Positions 1 to 7,560 of a DNA stretch of 7,560 nt are shown piece by piece. This stretch comes from a virus (Duplodnaviria; Heunggongvirae; Uroviricota; Caudoviricetes). The notes under the pieces were generated by a model. That model was not told the DNA's origin, did no database searches, and saw nothing but the letters and a program-made list of their open reading frames with translations. The translations under genes were made by a program, and so were the position numbers. The first letter of the stretch is position 1. Every line of letters begins with the position of its first letter. The DNA is taken from positions 1 through 7,560 of IMG/VR virus record IMGVR_UViG_2541047943_000002; one strand, 5' to 3'.

Positions 1-24
1 ATCGTTAAGCCGGGCCGTGAATCC

Positions 25-1011
25 ATGCCGGTATTCCACAATACCCGGGTACTGGTGGAGCCGGAACCGAAAAGCATGCGTAATCTGCCGTCCGGAGTCG
101 TTCCTGCCGTTCGACAGCCGCTGGCAGAGGATAAAATATTACTGCCATTTTTCAGCAACGAACGGGTGATTCGTGCTGCGGGTGGCGCTGGTGCACTGTC
201 TGACTGGTTATTACGTCACGTGAAATCCTGCCAGTGGCCACACGGTGATTATCATCACAGCGAAACCGTCATTCACCGTTACAGTACCGGCGCGATGGTG
301 TTGTGCTGGCACTGTGACAACCAGCTGCGCGACCAGACATCAGAATCACTCGATCAACTTGCTCAGCAGAATCTGGTTGCCTGGATGATTGACGTCATCC
401 GTCACGCAATAAGCGGTACGCAGGAGAGGGAGTTATCGCTGGCCGAATTATCCTGGTGGGCGGCCTGCAATCAGGTGGTGGATGCACTACCTGAGGCAGT
501 AGCGCGTCGTTCGCTGGGATTACCGGTGGAAAAAATCCGCTCCGTATACCGTGAGAGTGACATCGTACCGGGAGAACAGACAGCCATCAGCATACTGAAG
601 CAGCGCACAAAAAATATTGCGCTGCCACTTCACGTCCACCAGCAACAGCCCCCACCCCAGGAAAAGACGTTAGTAAGCATCGCCGTTGATCCGGAGTCTC
701 CGGCTCAGTACCTCCAGCGCCAGAAACCACAACGGGAAGAGATGCCTGTATACACGCGCTGGGTAAAAACGCAGAAATGCATGACGTGTGGCAATCAGGC
801 AGATGATCCGCATCACATCATTGGTCATGGACTGGGAGGGATGGGAACAAAGGCTGACGATTTGTTTGTTATTCCGCTGTGTCGTAAATGCCATAACGAA
901 CTACACGCCGGGGTAAAAGATTTTGAAGAAAAACACGGTAGTCAGTTGTTGTTGCTGATTCGTTTTTTAATGCACGCGAGAAATTCGGGTGTTCTGAAGT
1001 GGAAAGCATAA
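25..1011 (+). CDS. DUF968-family prophage protein (YdfU-like) with C-terminal Cys/His HNH-like zinc motif; probably 5'-truncated by the window edge
   Basis: 328-aa ORF; the frame is open upstream of the first ATG back to position 1 and there is no Shine-Dalgarno before 25, so the real start is probably upstream of the window. C-terminus carries CMTCGN...DPHHIIGHG...CRKCHNELH (CxxC...HH...CxxC-H...H). Immediately followed by rusA (TAA-ATG junction at 1009-1014). Family assignment is from memory. Confidence 0.7.
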   Translation: MPVFHNTRVLVEPEPKSMRNLPSGVVPAVRQPLAEDKILLPFFSNERVIRAAGGAGALSDWLLRHVKSCQWPHGDYHHSETVIHRYSTGAMVLCWHCDNQLRDQTSESLDQLAQQNLVAWMIDVIRHAISGTQERELSLAELSWWAACNQVVDALPEAVARRSLGLPVEKIRSVYRESDIVPGEQTAISILKQRTKNIALPLHVHQQQPPPQEKTLVSIAVDPESPAQYLQRQKPQREEMPVYTRWVKTQKCMTCGNQADDPHHIIGHGLGGMGTKADDLFVIPLCRKCHNELHAGVKDFEEKHGSQLLLLIRFLMHARNSGVLKWKA

Positions 1012-1392
1012 ATGACCGAACGCATAGAATTTGTTTTGCCTTACCCGCCGACGGTGAACACTTACTGGCGACGCCGTGGCAGCACATATTTTGTATCAAA
1101 AGCCGGGGAGCGTTATCGCCGGGCAGTGGCGCTTATTGTTCGCCAGCAGCGCTTGAAATTAAGCCTGTCCGGACGGTTGGCAATAAAAATTATTGCAGAA
1201 CCACCGGATAAGCGCCGCCGTGACCTGGACAATATTCTGAAAGCACCGCTGGATGCGCTGACGCATGCGGGGTTGCTAATGGACGATGAGCAGTTTGATG
1301 AAATCAATATCGTTCGTGTTCAGCCAGTATCTGGTGGACGTCTGGGGGTGAAGATTTACCCCATAATGCTTGAAGGGCAGGTCAAAAAATGA
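1012..1392 (+). CDS. rusA: Crossover-junction endodeoxyribonuclease RusA (Holliday junction resolvase)
   Basis: 126-aa translation has the RusA hallmarks: N-terminal LPYPPTVNTYWRRRG and the catalytic-region motif DKRRRDLDNILKAPLDALTHAGL. GGAAAG Shine-Dalgarno 6 nt upstream of the ATG; stop overlaps the next start (ATGA at 1389-1392). Confidence 0.88.
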   Translation: MTERIEFVLPYPPTVNTYWRRRGSTYFVSKAGERYRRAVALIVRQQRLKLSLSGRLAIKIIAEPPDKRRRDLDNILKAPLDALTHAGLLMDDEQFDEINIVRVQPVSGGRLGVKIYPIMLEGQVKK

Positions 1393-2210
1393 AACTGGAA
1401 GATTTACCGAAATACTACTCCCCAAAATCCCCCGGCCTGACTGATGCATCGGCCTCAACGTCGAAAGATGCGCTGAGTATCACTGATGTGATGGCCGCGC
1501 AGGGCATGACACAGAATCGGGCTGAGATGGGGTTTTCTGCGTTCCTTGGGAAAATGGGCATTAGTATGAATGACAGAGAGCGGGCAACAGAATTGCTGAC
1601 AGAATATGCACTCAGTCGGTGTGATCGCATGGCGGCGTTAAGAAAACTCCCGGCAGAAATAAAACCGGCAGTGATGCGTATTATGGCTTCGTATGCGTTT
1701 GAAGATTATGCCCGTAGCGCGGCGAGCAAAAAACAGTGCCCCTGCTGTCACGGAAAAAAATTTATTGAAAGCGAGGTTTTTACAAACAAGATCCAGTATC
1801 CGGATGGTAAGCCGCCAGTGTGGGCAAAGTGCACAAAAGGCGTGTATCCGTCTTACTGGGAGGAATGGAAAAAAGTCAGGGAGGTGGTCAAAGTTGCCTG
1901 TCCGGACTGTGGAGGGAAGGGAGAGGTATCCACTGCCTGTAAAGATTGTCGTGGGCGCGGTGTTGCCATTCATCGTGAAGAGTCTGAAAAACAGGGTGTG
2001 CCGGTTTTCAGAAACTGTCAGCGTTGTGGTGGGCGTGGCTATGAAAGATTACCTTCAACGGAGGCATTTAATGCCATATGTAATGTAACCGATGCCATAT
2101 CTCTTGATACATGGAAAAAAACAGTTAAACGTTTTTACGATACGCTGGTGGTGCAGTTTGATATTGAAGAAGCATGGGCAGAACAACAACTGAAAAAGGT
2201 GACCAGATAG
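1389..2210 (+). CDS. Q-like late-gene antitermination protein with four CxxCxGxG (DnaJ-type) zinc-finger repeats
   Basis: 273-aa ORF translationally coupled to rusA. Position (after rusA, immediately before a promoter plus intrinsic terminator) matches Q of lambdoid phages. Repeats CPCCHGKK, CPDCGGKG, CKDCRGRG, CQRCGGRG are visible in the translation. Q-family membership is inferred from context and recollection, not from a search. Confidence 0.6.
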   Translation: MKLEDLPKYYSPKSPGLTDASASTSKDALSITDVMAAQGMTQNRAEMGFSAFLGKMGISMNDRERATELLTEYALSRCDRMAALRKLPAEIKPAVMRIMASYAFEDYARSAASKKQCPCCHGKKFIESEVFTNKIQYPDGKPPVWAKCTKGVYPSYWEEWKKVREVVKVACPDCGGKGEVSTACKDCRGRGVAIHREESEKQGVPVFRNCQRCGGRGYERLPSTEAFNAICNVTDAISLDTWKKTVKRFYDTLVVQFDIEEAWAEQQLKKVTR

Positions 2211-2212
2211 CT

Positions 2213-2243
2213 TTGTTGATTTTTCCCGAATCTGTGGTAAATT
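2213..2243 (+). promoter_or_regulatory. pR'-like late promoter (-35 TTGATT 2216-2221, 16-bp spacer, extended -10 TGgTAAATT 2235-2243)
   Basis: Sigma70-like hexamers with correct spacing and a TG at -15/-14, lying directly after the Q-like gene and about 50 nt before an intrinsic terminator. This is the geometry expected for a Q-modified late promoter and its tR'. Confidence 0.5.
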
Positions 2244-2292
2244 TGCCCTAACGATGGGCGTTTTATGCCTGACGTTAGAAGATTTTTTACAC

Positions 2293-2315
2293 CCCGCCGC
2301 CTGGCGGGTTTTTTA
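2293..2315 (+). terminator. tR'-like intrinsic terminator (CCCGCC-gcct-GGCGGG + TTTTTTA)
   Basis: Perfect 6-bp GC stem with a 4-nt loop followed by a 6-T run. A 17-codon mini-ORF (2265-2318) with tandem AGA-AGA codons runs through it. Confidence 0.75.
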
Positions 2316-2436
2316 TGACTGAAATCGCGTCAGTACAGTAAACGCGCTGGTGGTTGCGAATACGGGTCTTTCAGCTTGCTGGCTTTTTCGACAAGAGTTA
2401 TTGGTATGTCACGTTAACCGGAAAAGGGAAAAAGAC

Positions 2437-2634
2437 ATGCTAAAACAGCAGGATATGACAGAAACCGCCAGAGTGGTGTTTAATGAATTAAGCGTTACCG
2501 ACCCGGCGACAGTCGGGGAGATTGCGCAGAATACTTACCTTTCACGTGAACGCTGCCAGTTAATACTGACCCAGCTTGTTATGGCGGGGCTGGCAGACTA
2601 TCAGTTCGGTTGTTACAGACGCCTTCAGTCCTGA
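2437..2634 (+). CDS. Small (65 aa) putative winged-helix DNA-binding protein
   Basis: ATG at 2437 is preceded by AAGGGA 8-9 nt upstream. The motif TVGEIAQNTYLSRERCQLILTQLVMAGL looks like an HTH recognition helix. The stop codon lies inside a strong intrinsic terminator. The longer track ORF from 2350 has no ribosome-binding site and is rejected. Confidence 0.5.
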   Translation: MLKQQDMTETARVVFNELSVTDPATVGEIAQNTYLSRERCQLILTQLVMAGLADYQFGCYRRLQS

Positions 2635-2648
2635 AGGCTTTTTTATTT
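2621..2648 (+). terminator. Intrinsic terminator (GCCTTCA-gtcc-TGAAGGC + TTTTTTATTT)
   Basis: 7-bp stem, 4-nt loop and T-run directly after the small ORF. Confidence 0.75.
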
Positions 2649-2658
2649 GTGGTAAATG
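2648..2658 (+). promoter_or_regulatory. Second copy of the TGTGGTAAAT extended -10-like element, upstream of the methyltransferase gene
   Basis: The 10-mer TGTGGTAAAT at 2648-2657 is identical to the pR'-like -10 region at 2233-2242. No good -35 is present, but extended -10 promoters can work without one. Confidence 0.3.
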
Positions 2659-2784
2659 GGCGGCTGGTGGGTGTTAGGGGCACTCACCAGCCATCTGCTC
2701 ATGCGTCCGGATCACAAGCAAACCTCAGGCCCACTGCTTTGCGCAAAAGCAGAATGAGCCTATCAGAGACAGGCTTAATGATCC

Positions 2785-3843
2785 ATGCTTAGTACTGTAA
2801 AAATATCCAGTTGTGAGTTAATCAACGCCGACTGCCTGGAATTTATCCGGTCGTTACCCGAAAATTCTGTTGACCTGATAGTCACGGACCCGCCGTACTT
2901 TAAAGTGAAGCCTGAGGGCTGGGATAACCAGTGGAAGGGCGACGATGATTACCTGAAGTGGCTGGACCAGTGTCTGGCGCAGTTCTGGCGGGTGCTGAAA
3001 CCTGCCGGAAGTCTTTACCTGTTCTGTGGCCATCGCCTGGCGTCTGATATCGAAATCATGATGCGTGAACGCTTCAGTGTGCTGAACCATATTATCTGGG
3101 CGAAGCCGTCCGGACGCTGGAACGGATGCAACAAGGAAAGCCTGCGGGCGTATTTCCCCGCCACAGAGCGCATTCTGTTCGCGGAACATTATCAGGGGCC
3201 GTATCGTCCGAAAGATGCCGGGTATGCGGCGAAGGGCAGTGCACTGAAACAGCATGTGATGGCCCCGCTGATTTCTTACTTTCGTGATGCGCGTGCTGCC
3301 CTGGGGATAACGGCAAAACAGATTGCTGATGCCACAGGAAAGAAAAACATGGTGTCGCACTGGTTCAGTGCCAGCCAGTGGCAGCTACCGGACGAAAGCG
3401 ATTATCTGAAATTACAGGCGCTGTTTGCCCGGGTGGCAGAAGATAAGCATCAGCGCGGAGAACTGGAAAAGCCACATCACCAACTGGTCAGCACATACAG
3501 TGAACTGAACCGGCAGTATACGGAACTGCAGAGTGAATATAAGCATCTGCGGCGGTATTTTGGTGTGACGGTGCAGGTGCCGTACACCGATGTGTGGACG
3601 CATAAACCGGTGCAGTACTATCCCGGGAAACATCCGTGCGAAAAACCGGCAGAAATGCTGCAGCAGATAATCAGCGCTAGCAGTCGTCCGGGTGACCTGA
3701 TTGCAGATTTTTTCATGGGGTCGGGTTCGACAGTGAAAGCGGCACTGGCGCTCGGGCGTCGTGCAACTGGCGTTGAGCTGGAGACTGAACGTTTTGAGCA
3801 GACGGTTCGGGAAGTACAGGATTTAGTCAGCCAGAACGGATGA
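2785..3843 (+). CDS. Beta-class DNA amino-methyltransferase (N6-adenine or N4-cytosine); apparently orphan
   Basis: 352-aa ORF with catalytic motif IV DPPY (VTDPPYF) near the N-terminus and the AdoMet-binding motif I FxGxG (DFFMGSGST) near the C-terminus, which is the beta-class order. No restriction endonuclease partner is in the window. Confidence 0.85.
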   Translation: MLSTVKISSCELINADCLEFIRSLPENSVDLIVTDPPYFKVKPEGWDNQWKGDDDYLKWLDQCLAQFWRVLKPAGSLYLFCGHRLASDIEIMMRERFSVLNHIIWAKPSGRWNGCNKESLRAYFPATERILFAEHYQGPYRPKDAGYAAKGSALKQHVMAPLISYFRDARAALGITAKQIADATGKKNMVSHWFSASQWQLPDESDYLKLQALFARVAEDKHQRGELEKPHHQLVSTYSELNRQYTELQSEYKHLRRYFGVTVQVPYTDVWTHKPVQYYPGKHPCEKPAEMLQQIISASSRPGDLIADFFMGSGSTVKAALALGRRATGVELETERFEQTVREVQDLVSQNG

Positions 3844-3883
3844 TATTGAAGAATTAATTACGCGTCGTTATTATGCGGCTCCC

Positions 3884-3959
3884 GGCCCTTTAGCTCAGTG
3901 GTGAGAGCGAGCGACTCATAATCGCCAGGTCGCTGGTTCAAATCCAGCAAGGGCCACCA
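3884..3959 (+). tRNA. ileZ: tRNA-Ile2 (anticodon CAU, ileX/ileZ-like; Met cannot be excluded from sequence alone)
   Basis: 76-nt cloverleaf: acceptor GGCCCTT/AAGGGCC, D-arm GCTC-AGTGGTGA-GAGC, anticodon loop CTCATAA, T-arm GCTGG-TTCAAAT-CCAGC, encoded CCA. Very close to E. coli ileX as I remember it. Gene symbol follows Stx-phage convention. Confidence 0.85.
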
Positions 3960-3968
3960 TATCACATA

Positions 3969-4045
3969 CCGCCATTAGCTCATCAGGATAGAGCGCCAGC
4001 TTTCGAAGCTGGTTGCGCGGAGTTCGGGTCCCCGAAGGCGGTCCA
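3969..4045 (+). tRNA. argN: tRNA-Arg (anticodon UCG), non-canonical features
   Basis: 77-nt cloverleaf with D-arm GCTC-ATCAGGATA-GAGC, anticodon stem CCAGC/GCTGG, loop TTTCGAA, T-loop TTCGGGT and encoded CCA. It has C1-G72, an A6/A67 mismatch, an A52/C62 mismatch and U73. Symbol assumed from the ileZ-argN-argO convention. Confidence 0.65.
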
Positions 4046-4058
4046 TTATCTGTATCCT

Positions 4059-4135
4059 GCGTTGTTAGCTCAGCCGGACAGAGCAATTGCCTTCTAAGCA
4101 ATCGGTCACTGGTTCGAATCCAGTACAACGCGCCA
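4059..4135 (+). tRNA. argO: tRNA-Arg (anticodon UCU, argU-like)
   Basis: 77-nt cloverleaf: perfect acceptor stem GCGTTGT/ACAACGC, anticodon loop CTTCTAA, T-arm ACTGG-TTCGAAT-CCAGT, G73, encoded CCA. Confidence 0.88.
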
Positions 4136-4179
4136 CACTTATTTTCCCTGGCTCGCTTTTGCGGGCTTTTTTTAAATGT

Positions 4180-4395
4180 CTCACAATTCAGGCGGTTGAC
4201 TGTTGTCTGGTTTGCGGGGAGTTTGTTAAAAGAAACTGGCATGGTGAATCCCCCTGTGCGGAGGGGCAATCAGCGAGTAGGTATATGGGATAATCGCGGA
4301 TTCAGGTGCTGGTACTGAATTCACCGGGAGGCACCCGGCACCATGCAATGGCACATAGCGCCACTCTCCAGCCCCTCTCCGGAGGGGCTTTTCTG
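4180..4395 (+). repeat. Tandem structured non-coding module, copy A (candidate sRNA / attenuator unit)
   Basis: Shares four conserved blocks with copy B: CTCACAATTCAG, GCATGGTGAATCCCCCTG(t/a)GCGGAGGGGC, CTGAA(t/c)TCACCGGGAGGCACCCGGCACCATG and AGCCCCTCTCCGGAGGGGCTTT. These are separated by non-homologous spacers. Ends in an intrinsic terminator. Confidence 0.6.
4372..4395 (+). terminator. Intrinsic terminator of module A (GCCCCTC-tccg-GAGGGGC + TTTTCT)
   Basis: 7-bp GC-rich stem, tetraloop and T-rich tail. Confidence 0.7.
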
Positions 4396-4583
4396 TGCCG
4401 GATACATCACAGTTTCTGGAACCTTAGGTACTACAGTATCAGTCAGGGTGCTATATTTTCAGATGTGATGAAAGCCTGTCAGCAGGCAGGGCGTATCGGA
4501 AATGACCCAGTAGAGAAAACGTTGACTCAGATACCGGTGCTGAGTTACCGGGAAACCGGCATCACATGACCGCTATCCTTCCA

Positions 4584-4610
4584 GGCCCATCCGCTCCGGT
4601 GGGCCTTTTT
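4584..4610 (+). terminator. Intrinsic terminator in the inter-module spacer (GGCCCATC ... GGTGGGCC + TTTTTA)
   Basis: 8-bp stem (one G-U pair), 6-nt loop and 5-T run. Sits 17 nt after the stop of a 33-codon ORF (4466-4567). Confidence 0.65.
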
Positions 4611-4646
4611 ACTGCAGAAAACAGGTTCCCCGTTAAATGCTATGTT

Positions 4647-4880
4647 GCTCACAATTCAGTAAGTTGACAGTTGCCTGTCAGACTGGGCATTTGTTAAAAA
4701 AATTTCGCATGGTGAATCCCCCTGAGCGGAGGGGCGACTGGTGACGGTATAATCTCTGATTATCAAAACGAGAATGACGCGGGTTTAGTGGCACCGGGCT
4801 GAACTCACCGGGAGGCACCCGGCACCATGTGCATGATGATACAGATACGCGGCTTTAGCCCCTCTCCGGAGGGGCTTTCT
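4647..4880 (+). repeat. Tandem structured non-coding module, copy B (candidate sRNA / attenuator unit)
   Basis: Same four conserved blocks as copy A; contains a perfect TATAAT at 4748-4753 in its variable centre; ends in an identical terminator. Confidence 0.6.
4858..4880 (+). terminator. Intrinsic terminator of module B (GCCCCTC-tccg-GAGGGGC + TTTCTTAT)
   Basis: Identical stem-loop to the module A terminator, followed by a T-rich tail. Confidence 0.7.
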
Positions 4881-5109
4881 TATGGACAAAAAAAGCCCGC
4901 GCTGGGAGACGCGGGCGGCAAGGAATAAACAATAAAACGTGAAGTAATATTTCAGCTGGCGAATAATACCCTATAGTAATCACTCTGCGCAACTGCGCGG
5001 TCTTTTTCGAATTGCGGGCTGTAGTCTCCCTTCTGCCATTGTCCTGTAACTTCCGGACTTCAGCCTGCTCCTTATCTGACTCACAACATTATCCCGCCCG
5101 GGAGGATTC

Positions 5110-6963
5110 ATGGCATTTAAACACTATGACGTGGTCAGGGCGGCATCGCCGTCAGACCTTGCGAAACGACTGACACAAAAACTGAAGGAGGGCTGGCAGC
5201 CGTTTGGTAGTCCGGTGGCCATAACCCCTTATACCCTGATGCAGGCGATTGCAGCAGAAGGTGATGTGGTCGTCAGTGGTGCAACTGAGCCGGAGTGGTA
5301 CTACGTCATCGTACTGGCCGGGCAATCCAATGCCATGGCTTACGGTGAAGGGCTTCCGCTTCCGGATTCATACGATGCGCCCCATCCGCGCATTAAGCAA
5401 CTGGCCCGTCGTAACACAGTGACTCCCGGTGGTGAAGTATGCGTATTTAACGACATCATTCCTGCTGACCATTGTCTGCATGATGTTCAGGATATGAGTA
5501 CGATTAACCATCCCCGGGCTGACCTGAGCAAAGGGCAGTACGGCTGTGTCGGACAGGGCTTACATATTGCCAAAAAACTGCTTCCGTATATCCCTAATAA
5601 TGCGGGGATCCTGCTGGTACCATGCTGTCGTGGTGGTTCGGCATTCACCCAGGGCACGGAGGGGACATTCAGCGAGTCCACGGGAGCCAGTCAGGATTCG
5701 GCTCGCTGGGGAGTGGGTAAGCCGTTATATCAGGATCTGCTTTTCCGCACGAAGGCAGCATTGCAGAAAAACCCGAAAAACGTTTTGCTGGCGATATGCT
5801 GGATGCAGGGGGAATTCGATATGACGAATGCCAGTTACGCCCAGCAGCCAGCAGCATTTCTTGCAATGGTACAGCAGTTCCGTGCTGACCTTGCCGGGCT
5901 GGCAGCGCAGTGTCACGGTGGAAGTCCGGCATCAGTCCCCTGGATTTGTGGCGACACGACATACGCGTGGAAACAAGAACACGGTACGCAATATGAAGTG
6001 GTATATGGTGCATATAAAGGTAAAGAATCCCAGCAGATTTATTTTGTTCCCTTTATGACCGATGGTAGCGGAGTTAATACACCGACAAACAACCCGTCAG
6101 AAGATCCTGATATTGCCGGGTCTGGTTATTACGGTTCGGCATCCCGAACGAACAAAAACTGGGTATCATCAAATCGCCCGACGCATTTCAGCTCATGGGC
6201 GCGTCGTGGCATTATTCCCGATCGTATGGCAACTGCTATTCTGAACGTAGCCGGTCGCACCTTAGCCTTCATTAGTGGTAAGGCACCGGAAATCAAACCC
6301 TCGCCCGGCGGCGACACGCCATCGGGGCCGTCTGAAGATGCATCCATACGCACAATCTCCCTGTTGCCGACAGCCGGAGACGCTGCTGCGCAGGGCTGGA
6401 GCATTAAGAATGGCGGAATTCAGTTGTCAGATGGTGTATTTAAGATCACCAAGCAGAGCAATAAAGCCTGGTCCCTGACGCGCCCGGTGGATGACGCAGT
6501 CTCCCTGCTGACACGGGGTGGCAGACTGAGCTGTAAGTTTCGACTGTCAGGCGCACTGACCAACAACCAGTTCGGTCTGGGAATTTATCTGTATACCGAT
6601 GTAGCGTTACCTGACGTCGTGGCGATGACCGGGACTGGTAACCCGTTCCTGATGTCGTTCTTCACCCAGACCACAGACGGCAAACTGAATCTGATGCATC
6701 ACAAGAAAGCAGGAAACACAAAGTTGGGCGAGTTCGGGAATTACAGTAACGACTGGCAGACGCTGGAGCTGGTGTTCACCGCCGGCAGTGCCACGGTTAC
6801 TCCGAAACTGAATGGAGTGGCTGGCCCGGCATTCCAGGTCATAAAAGACAGTCTGACACTGGGGCTGAATGCGCTGACGCTGACGGATATTACCAAAAAT
6901 GCAGCGTATGGCGTTGAGATAGAAAGTCTGGTGCTGGAGATAAATGCACCGGCATCATCATAA
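5110..6963 (+). CDS. nanS-p: Prophage-encoded sialate O-acetylesterase (NanS-p type: N-terminal DUF1737-like region, SGNH/SASA esterase core, roughly 250-aa C-terminal domain of unknown function)
   Basis: 617-aa ORF with GGAGG Shine-Dalgarno 5 nt upstream. The N-terminus MAFKHYDVV...GWQPFGSP matches the NanS-p/YjhS prophage family as I remember it. A GQSN catalytic block (VLAGQSNAMAYGEG) is present. The position, directly before the holin, is typical of Stx-phage-like prophages. Confidence 0.8.
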   Translation: MAFKHYDVVRAASPSDLAKRLTQKLKEGWQPFGSPVAITPYTLMQAIAAEGDVVVSGATEPEWYYVIVLAGQSNAMAYGEGLPLPDSYDAPHPRIKQLARRNTVTPGGEVCVFNDIIPADHCLHDVQDMSTINHPRADLSKGQYGCVGQGLHIAKKLLPYIPNNAGILLVPCCRGGSAFTQGTEGTFSESTGASQDSARWGVGKPLYQDLLFRTKAALQKNPKNVLLAICWMQGEFDMTNASYAQQPAAFLAMVQQFRADLAGLAAQCHGGSPASVPWICGDTTYAWKQEHGTQYEVVYGAYKGKESQQIYFVPFMTDGSGVNTPTNNPSEDPDIAGSGYYGSASRTNKNWVSSNRPTHFSSWARRGIIPDRMATAILNVAGRTLAFISGKAPEIKPSPGGDTPSGPSEDASIRTISLLPTAGDAAAQGWSIKNGGIQLSDGVFKITKQSNKAWSLTRPVDDAVSLLTRGGRLSCKFRLSGALTNNQFGLGIYLYTDVALPDVVAMTGTGNPFLMSFFTQTTDGKLNLMHHKKAGNTKLGEFGNYSNDWQTLELVFTAGSATVTPKLNGVAGPAFQVIKDSLTLGLNALTLTDITKNAAYGVEIESLVLEINAPASS

Positions 6964-7046
6964 AAAGTGAGCCAGTCAAATGGAAGGTATCGTTAAACTC
7001 ACCGGTAGTGTCAGTGGGTCGTCTGAGATGCCTGCATGAGTTATCA

Positions 7047-7078
7047 GAGCCATCAGTACTTAACTGGTGGCTTTTTTT
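7047..7078 (+). terminator. Intrinsic terminator between esterase and holin genes
   Basis: Stem AGAGCCATCAG / CTGGTGGCT (with a G-U pair), 7-nt loop, then TTTTTTT. Confidence 0.6.
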
Positions 7079-7113
7079 ATTGTTGTCAGCTTCCGGATAA
7101 CGGGAGACGGGGT

Positions 7114-7329
7114 ATGGACCAGATGGAAAAAATCACAACAGGTGTGTCATACACCACGTCAGCGGTGGGAACGGGCTACTGGTTCCTGCAGTTGCTGGAC
7201 AGGGTTTCCCCGTCTCAGTGGGCGGCAATAGGCGTGCTGGGGAGTCTGCTGTTTGGGCTGCTGACATATCTGACTAACCTGTATTTCAAAATCAGAGAGG
7301 ACCGTCGTAAGGCTGCACGGGGAGAGTAA
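7114..7329 (+). CDS. S: S21-type pinholin (class II holin) with dual-start motif M-D-Q-M
   Basis: 71-aa product [71 protein letters not shown] closely resembles the phage 21 S pinholin as I remember it (two transmembrane segments, charged C-terminus). GGAG is 8 nt upstream. The 97-aa track ORF from 7036 starts before the terminator and is rejected. Confidence 0.85.
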
Positions 7330-7333
7330 TTCA

Positions 7334-7560
7334 ATGACTCAAAACTATAAACTGATTGTGAAAGGGATCCGCAATTTTGAGAATAAAGTTACGGTAACTT
7401 TAGCGTTACGGGACAAAAAACGCTTTGACGGTGAAATTTTTGACCTGGACATCTCGCTGGACCGTGTTGAAGGTGCCGCGCTGGAGTTTTATGAGGCAGC
7501 AGCCAGAAGGAGCATCAGACAGGTCTTCCTGGATGTTGCTGCCGGGTTATGTGAAGGGGA
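7334..7560 (+). CDS. 5' part of a late-region gene of unknown function (YdfR/DUF1327-like), truncated by the window end
   Basis: ATG at 7334 with GGAGAG 6 nt upstream. The frame stays open for 75 codons to the window end (MTQNYKLIVKGIRNFENKVTVTLALRDKKRFDGEIFDLD...). Position between holin and the expected endolysin matches ydfR-like genes. Contains AGA, AGG and AGA codons within a few residues. Family recalled, not verified. Confidence 0.55.
   Translation, partial: MTQNYKLIVKGIRNFENKVTVTLALRDKKRFDGEIFDLDISLDRVEGAALEFYEAAARRSIRQVFLDVAAGLCEG

Follow-up and report, generated by a model that had tools for sequence, protein, structure and literature searches.

A putative lambda-type antitermination protein Q with four CxxCxGxG motifs encoded in a lambdoid prophage sequence

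We examined a gene in a 7,560-nucleotide stretch of Caudoviricetes DNA (positions 1 to 7,560 of IMG/VR virus record IMGVR_UViG_2541047943_000002; "the window" below means this whole stretch). Its product carries four cysteine motifs of the CxxCxGxG type that are shared with DnaJ. Sequence comparison and structure modelling indicate that the protein is very probably a lambda-family Q, the late-gene antiterminator of a lambdoid prophage, in the common long form. This four-motif form is the usual architecture of the Q-lambda family and is already known and widespread. The coordinates of all features are collected in Table 1.

Assignment to the Lambda Q Family

The profile search gave a match to Pfam PF03589 ("Antitermination protein Q") at E=2.5e-52, with 175.4 bits against a cut-off of 26.7, and PHROG 127 ("anti-termination protein Q-like") was matched at E=6e-113. 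Q-lambda (7ubm_Q) was found in a PDB sequence search by phmmer with E=1.2e-41. Direct alignment with lambda Q (J02459) was collinear from end to end at 41% identity: residues 1-113 correspond to lambda 1-113 and residues 182-273 to lambda 116-207, with residues 115-180 opposite the one gap in lambda Q, of 66 residues. An AlphaFold2 model was built from 62 homologues (mean predicted local distance difference test score of 80, low in residues 1-30). The eight top PDB matches of this model in Foldseek were Q-lambda structures (7ubn_Q, E=3.6e-14, probability 1.0), and the next match was a DnaJA2 fragment at E=0.32. Because the Pfam, PHROG, PDB, alignment and fold matches agree, the protein is placed in the lambda Q family and not in a separate one. 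The Q families are represented by PF03589 (Q-lambda), PF06530 (Q21) and PF06323 (Q82) (Yin et al., PMC9388147; preprint 10.1101/2022.03.25.485794).

The first-pass annotation, made from the letters of the window, had called the protein a Q-like antiterminator, which agrees with these results. It had proposed a profile search as one check, with placement in a non-Q family counting against the call, and comparison of an AlphaFold model as another; the former led to PF03589 and the latter to Q-lambda. It had also suggested a distinct Q family or a fusion. A separate fourth family with its own mode of RNA polymerase engagement would fit the 66 residues by which the protein exceeds lambda Q and its different number of zinc motifs, but it has next to no probability. 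The collinearity with lambda Q extends over the nozzle segment, the body and the arm, the PF03589 score is well over threshold and the top fold matches are Q-lambda; we consider this reading refuted by the profile, alignment and fold matches.

Residues known to contact RNA polymerase in lambda were found at the aligned positions. The N-terminal segment is equivalent to the part of Q-lambda that lacks order in the free protein and becomes, on refolding, a nozzle in the RNA exit channel (PMC9388147). Lambda residues 110-112, a contact to the beta' zinc-binding domain, recur unchanged as S110-A111-A112, and L268 and T272 correspond to lambda L202 and T206, which contact the flap-tip helix (PMC9388147). 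E200 corresponds to lambda E134, also a conserved contact residue.

The CxxCxGxG Motifs and Their Likeness to DnaJ

Four CxxCxG motifs are present, while the Cys and Gly content of the protein predicts 0.03. The eight cysteines and the motif glycines are invariant across the 62 aligned homologues (56-96% identity), all four motifs are kept in 112 of 120 close homologues, and they persist down to ∼30% identity among family representatives, in which motif 3 is often CxCxGxG. Since the motifs exceed the compositional expectation, are invariant in Cys and Gly and persist in homologues, the array is genuine and, by these sequence comparisons, under selection. Four evenly arranged DnaJ-style repeats had been noted in the first-pass annotation at residues about 117 to 215. 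The repeats and their range are correct; the spacing is not even, with gaps of 54, 13 and 26 residues between successive motifs, and the final residue of motif 1 is K instead of G.

The same annotation had regarded this architecture as foreign to lambda Q, which does not hold. In lambda Q, residues 114-152 form a zinc-ribbon arm (PMC9388147), the only cysteines of which lie in CRDCHGTG (from C118) and CGRCKGVG (from C144), both of which are CxxCxGxG motifs. C184, C187, C210 and C213 align with lambda C118, C121, C144 and C147, are invariant and have the same 26-residue spacing. By alignment, motifs 3 and 4 are the known zinc-ribbon arm of lambda Q, with these four cysteines as the predicted metal site.

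The similarity to DnaJ proper was limited. The DnaJ cysteine-rich model PF00684 scored 29.7 bits against a cut-off of 32.7, with its best stretch confined to residues 171-218, and NCBIfam DnaJ_bact scored 23.8 against a threshold of 377.2. No J domain or DnaJ C-terminal domain was detected in the Pfam and NCBIfam scans of the protein. A fusion of Q with a DnaJ-type cysteine-rich domain, which would have nested zinc centres and a chaperone-like or protein-binding role, could draw on the four repeats and on the near-threshold PF00684 score. We rejected it, together with the distinct family, on the collinearity with lambda Q, the sub-threshold PF00684 score and the lack of DnaJ domains; the four-motif form is moreover the majority form of PF03589. 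A fusion of this kind appears highly improbable.

In public precomputed annotation these Q proteins already carry PF00684. In the literature on CxxCxGxG or DnaJ motifs and antitermination we found one passing remark (PMC5313236), on an Acinetobacter phage protein that matches lambda Q in HHsearch and has two CXXCXGXG motifs. Matches of the DnaJ zinc-finger model lead to misnaming of Q proteins. One long-form homologue is named "chaperone protein DnaJ" (P0032), and another, from Klebsiella phage ST13-OXA48phi12.4 (H30), is named "molecular chaperone"; such names on long-form Q are apparently misannotations that stem from the CxxCxGxG motifs.

Predicted Late Promoter Region and Mechanism

The Q gene follows rusA, whose stop codon is overlapped by the Q start codon (ATGA), and the gene order is ydfU-like DUF968 gene, rusA, Q, PR', terminator and, further on, the holin gene. 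A PR'-like promoter is predicted directly downstream of Q. Its GGTAAATTTG is identical to that of lambda PR', and AACGATGGG is identical to the lambda pause element. The promoter spacer TTTCCCGAATCTGTGG, a candidate Q-binding element, is common to HK225, PHB10 and phiEt88, whose Q proteins are 52-62% identical to the one described here. The same PR' layout was found after the long-form Q genes of phi80 (in which it is annotated), HK225, PHB10, mEp460, ES18 and ST104, and the annotations of phi80, HK225 and ES18 include a terminator at the corresponding position. The spacer is 16-17 bp in all phages compared, for long and short forms alike. A generic sigma70 promoter scan of positions 2150-2800 called no promoter; we set this negative aside since the region aligns with lambda PR', with an identical -10 and pause element. 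As judged from these predicted elements, the gene lies directly upstream of a late promoter, pause element and terminator and ahead of the lysis genes, the placement by which Q-family members are recognised.

It was reported previously that Q-lambda binds an element in the promoter spacer through its body helix-turn-helix and its arm, the latter contacting positions 11-13 of the element. The arm contacts repositioned sigma region 4 with its tip and the beta' zinc-binding domain with its base; the termini meet the flap-tip helix, and the N-terminal segment becomes the exit-channel nozzle (PMC9388147). The protein of the window should act like Q-lambda because of its homology and of the same arrangement of PR', pause element and terminator, and antitermination and antipausing activity is predicted by homology. 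In the proposed mechanism, Q would bind the predicted element in the PR' spacer directly downstream of its own gene and capture RNA polymerase paused by sigma70 at AACGAT. It would contact the beta' zinc-binding domain and the beta flap-tip helix while its N-terminal segment refolds as the RNA-exit-channel nozzle, and the polymerase would then read through the terminator into the methylase, tRNA, esterase and lysis genes.

Without Q, a short PR' transcript of ∼65 nt (2250-2314) would be expected. The lambda 6S RNA, at 194 nt from start to terminator, is much longer. The ∼65-nt transcript might itself function as a small RNA; short PR' transcripts have been described as small RNAs for Stx phages. 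No Rfam family matched the 2250-2314 transcript at the gathering threshold. In phi80 (L002), TTTTCCCTAATGTTG at ∼1515-1531, ∼40 nt upstream of the -35 of the annotated phi80 PR', resembles the window spacer TTTTCCCGAATCTGTG.

A Putative Second Zinc Ribbon

In the AlphaFold2 model, strand 114-116 leads into knuckle 1 (residues 117-124), followed by a hairpin with strands 125-136 and 159-170 and a helical tip (137-158). After the hairpin come knuckle 2 (171-178), strand 179-181, knuckle 3, a strand-helix-strand and knuckle 4. The layout was the same in the full-length and the arm-only models. We infer that the protein has two tandem zinc ribbons, with motif 1 paired to 2 and motif 3 to 4. This pairing is favoured because the 12+12-residue hairpin abuts knuckles 1 and 2 and brings them together, and because motifs 3 and 4 are the lambda ribbon, and remain in lambda Q and in a short-form representative (P0187) in which motifs 1 and 2 are jointly missing. 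As a test of whether the inserted module arose by internal duplication of the lambda-type arm, the two were compared as sub-alignments in hhalign; only a 9-residue knuckle was aligned (probability 14%). One 337-residue homologue (P0001) has six motifs, seemingly through an extra N-terminal copy of the motif 1-2 module.

On its N-terminal side the extra ribbon directly follows S110-A111-A112, and on its C-terminal side it stops just short of the positions equivalent to lambda residues 117 and 122-126. Because it is flanked by the equivalents of lambda contact residues, it probably emerges at the body-arm junction, by the interface with the beta' zinc-binding domain. The suggestion made earlier that the motifs have implications for how the protein engages RNA polymerase is in line with this position.

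Alternatively, the extra ribbon might serve as a second arm for reading DNA, by which long forms recognise a larger or changed Q-binding element. The homologous lambda arm contacts positions 11-13 of its element, the knuckles are Lys/Arg-rich and Q proteins are promoter-specific. However, the spacer length given above does not differ between long and short forms, the hairpin is aromatic-rich and weakly basic (net charge ∼+2), and it is nearly absent in some long forms. Its similarity does not follow that of the spacer either. The hairpin is 57-63% identical to those of phi80 Q and one representative (P0123), compared with 42-48% overall, yet the phi80 spacer differs from the one here. Conversely, it is 28-48% identical to the hairpins of HK225, PHB10 and phiEt88, compared with 52-62% overall, and all of these share the spacer TTTCCCGAAnCTG. 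Since the two similarities do not track each other, hairpin type appears uncoupled from DNA-site type in the few cases available, and a second DNA-reading arm is unlikely.

With low confidence, we tentatively prefer a role for the extra ribbon as a brace or an added contact to a host component near the beta' zinc-binding domain, and not as a reader of phage-specific DNA sites. A more specific version, in which the ribbon contacts RNA polymerase, sigma or NusA in a manner unseen in the lambda structures and alters the loading requirements, with lambda Q as a reduced member of the family, is speculative and rather doubtful; if true, the changed requirements might be, e.g., NusA dependence or the stability of the loaded complex. 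We found no description of the function of the second ribbon in the searchable literature, which left out Guo and Roberts 2004 and Vorobiev et al. 2014. Structural work on the Q-lambda family has all been done on lambda Q, which is without the module that most members keep, and the module-bearing Q proteins include ones encoded upstream of Shiga toxin genes.

Distribution and Evolution of the Long Form

A search of 1.84 billion cluster representatives yielded 238 family clusters, and motifs were counted in the ∼57 full-length representatives (at least 180 aa). Four CxxC were present in 12 of these ∼57, and three CxxC plus a CxC at motif 3 (CRCxGxG) in 24; the alignment indicates that CRCxGxG is the same fourth knuckle. 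Approximately 36 of 57 therefore have four motifs, and ∼13 have two. In the phage genomes, full-length alignment marked 131 of 249 matching records as long forms, and lambda, P22, HK97 and HK620 have short forms. The window was matched over at least 80% of its length in 605 of 5,426 complete E. coli genomes, in which the RefSeq name of the gene is "antitermination protein". Annotation of such a gene, as "antitermination protein" or quuQ, is routine, and the finding carries little weight for this particular window.

On 207 shared columns the nearest relatives of lambda Q were long forms (50 and 48% identity), while the short form P0187 was 40% identical. Three short forms were monophyletic in 1 of 100 neighbour-joining bootstraps. 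Because the four-motif form is in the majority, lambda Q is nearest to long forms and the short forms do not group, the second ribbon was probably ancestral and deleted in lambda-type Q, possibly more than once.

Several points weigh against the reading presented here. Motifs 2 and 3 are spaced (C-x2-C-x9-C-x2-C) much as in the single zinc site of anti-TRAP, so that a nested pairing is less likely but conceivable. One representative (P0190, 223 aa) seems to keep only motifs 2 and 4, and the predicted zinc pairing is drawn from secondary structure and homology. The hairpin ranges from ∼6 to ∼60 residues across the family. Because of this variation, and because lambda Q works without the module, any role of the extra ribbon would be dispensable or lineage-specific, and the ribbon is not essential to the core mechanism. 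The neighbour-joining tree, computed from 207 columns and rooted at the midpoint, is a rough one. The activity of Q is deduced by homology, and the prophage may be defective.

Neighbouring Genes in the Window

The DUF968 protein upstream of rusA has an HNH-like C-terminus and 79% identity over 322 residues to K-12 YdfU, which adjoins Q in the Qin prophage too. Between the terminator and the methylase gene lies a small open reading frame with weak winged-helix matches (TrmB, DprA_WH), at the place of which a hypothetical protein is annotated in phage Stx2_EH1910; a second terminator-like hairpin overlaps its end. The tRNA cluster has the same arrangement upstream of stx2 in Stx2_EH1910. The stretch from the tRNA cluster to the esterase gene holds two copies of the small RNA STnc100 (Rfam RF02076; 136 and 165 bits). 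In related phages stx2AB occupies this place; no stx gene was found in this window. STnc100 is related to the PasD1/PasD2 small RNAs, which have been linked to PF03589 Q genes (2026 preprint). The esterase is a NanS-p-like sialate O-acetylesterase and is followed by a phage 21-type holin.

Table 1. Positions of the Q gene, its predicted parts and other features of the window.
Feature	Residues	Position (nt)	Strand	Remarks
Q antiterminator gene	1-273	1389..2210	+	273 aa; lambda Q family (probable), long four-motif form
N-terminal segment	1-60	1389..1568	+	Aligned with lambda Q 1-60, many identical columns
Helical body, first half	61-113	1569..1727	+	Ends with S110-A111-A112
Putative extra zinc-ribbon module	114-181	1728..1931	+	No counterpart in lambda Q; alignment gap, AlphaFold2 secondary structure, invariant Cys
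Motif 1, CPCCHGKK	117-124	1737-1760	+
Motif 2, CPDCGGKG	171-178	1899-1922	+
Lambda-type zinc-ribbon arm	182-220	1932..2048	+	Motifs 3 and 4; corresponds to Q-lambda residues 116-152
Motif 3, CKDCRGRG	184-191	1938-1961	+
Motif 4, CQRCGGRG	210-217	2016-2039	+
Body, second half	221-273	2049..2207	+	C-terminal helix; alignment, AlphaFold2
PR'-like late promoter (predicted)		2216..2243	+	-35 TTGATT, 2216-2221; -10 TAAATT, 2238-2243
Promoter spacer, 16 nt		2222-2237	+	TTTCCCGAATCTGTGG; candidate Q-binding element
AACGAT pause element (predicted)		2250..2255	+	-10-like, sigma-dependent, ∼+1 to +6; as in lambda PR'
Intrinsic terminator (predicted)		2293..2314	+	CCCGCC-GCCT-GGCGGG + T6; presumed Q target
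DUF968 protein (ydfU-like)		25-1011	+	HNH-like C-terminus
Small open reading frame		2350-2634	+	Between terminator and methylase gene
Terminator-like hairpin		2621-2638		Overlaps end of small open reading frame
tRNA cluster		3884-4135	+	Met (cat), Arg (tcg), Arg (tct)
STnc100 copies		4210-4400, 4678-4887	+	Rfam RF02076
NanS-p-like sialate O-acetylesterase		5110-6963	+	DUF1737 + SASA + DUF6645
Phage 21-type holin		7036..7329

Comparison with Known Systems

The DnaJ/Hsp40 cysteine-rich domain (PF00684; PDB 1EXK, 2CTT), anti-TRAP and BSD2 have in common with this protein the CxxCxGxG knuckle, present here four times, and the sequence and fold matches to them are weak. DnaJ zinc centres are nested in a V-shaped hairpin fold, with repeat 1 paired to 4 and 2 to 3, whereas the pairing proposed here is tandem (1+2 and 3+4). 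In DnaJ the cysteine-rich domain is flanked by a J domain with G/F region and by the C-terminal domains. Unlike in DnaJ, the motifs of Q are embedded in a DNA- and RNA polymerase-binding factor without a J or client-binding domain.

Lambda Q (PDB 4MO1, 7UBJ-7UBN) shares the nozzle segment, the body, the arm, S110-A111-A112 and the C-terminal helix, as well as the genomic position of the gene and an identical PR' -10 and AACGAT pause element. It lacks the equivalent of residues 115-180, with motifs 1 and 2 and the long hairpin, and has one zinc site compared with the two proposed here; the lambda PR' spacer, which holds its Q-binding element, also differs. Phi80 Q (gp17; JX871397, 269 aa) is likewise a long form with four motifs and has the same insertion (42% identity overall, 57% in the hairpin), and its PR', Q site and terminator are annotated directly downstream of Q. 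It differs in motif 3 (CxC compared with CxxC) and in the promoter spacer. Phi80 Q is said to have been studied experimentally by Guo and Roberts in 2004, as cited in PMC9388147.

QuuQ/YdfT of the E. coli K-12 Qin prophage (b1559, 250 aa) has four motifs (C113, C148, C161 and C187) and lies in a matching ydfU-Q neighbourhood. Across 248 aligned residues its identity is 44%, and its hairpin is shorter, with 35 residues between motifs 1 and 2. In phage Stx2_EH1910 the quuQ product is 97% identical and is encoded upstream of stx2AB, with rusA, Q, methylase, tRNA and nanS laid out as in this window and stx2AB at the place of the two STnc100 copies of this window.
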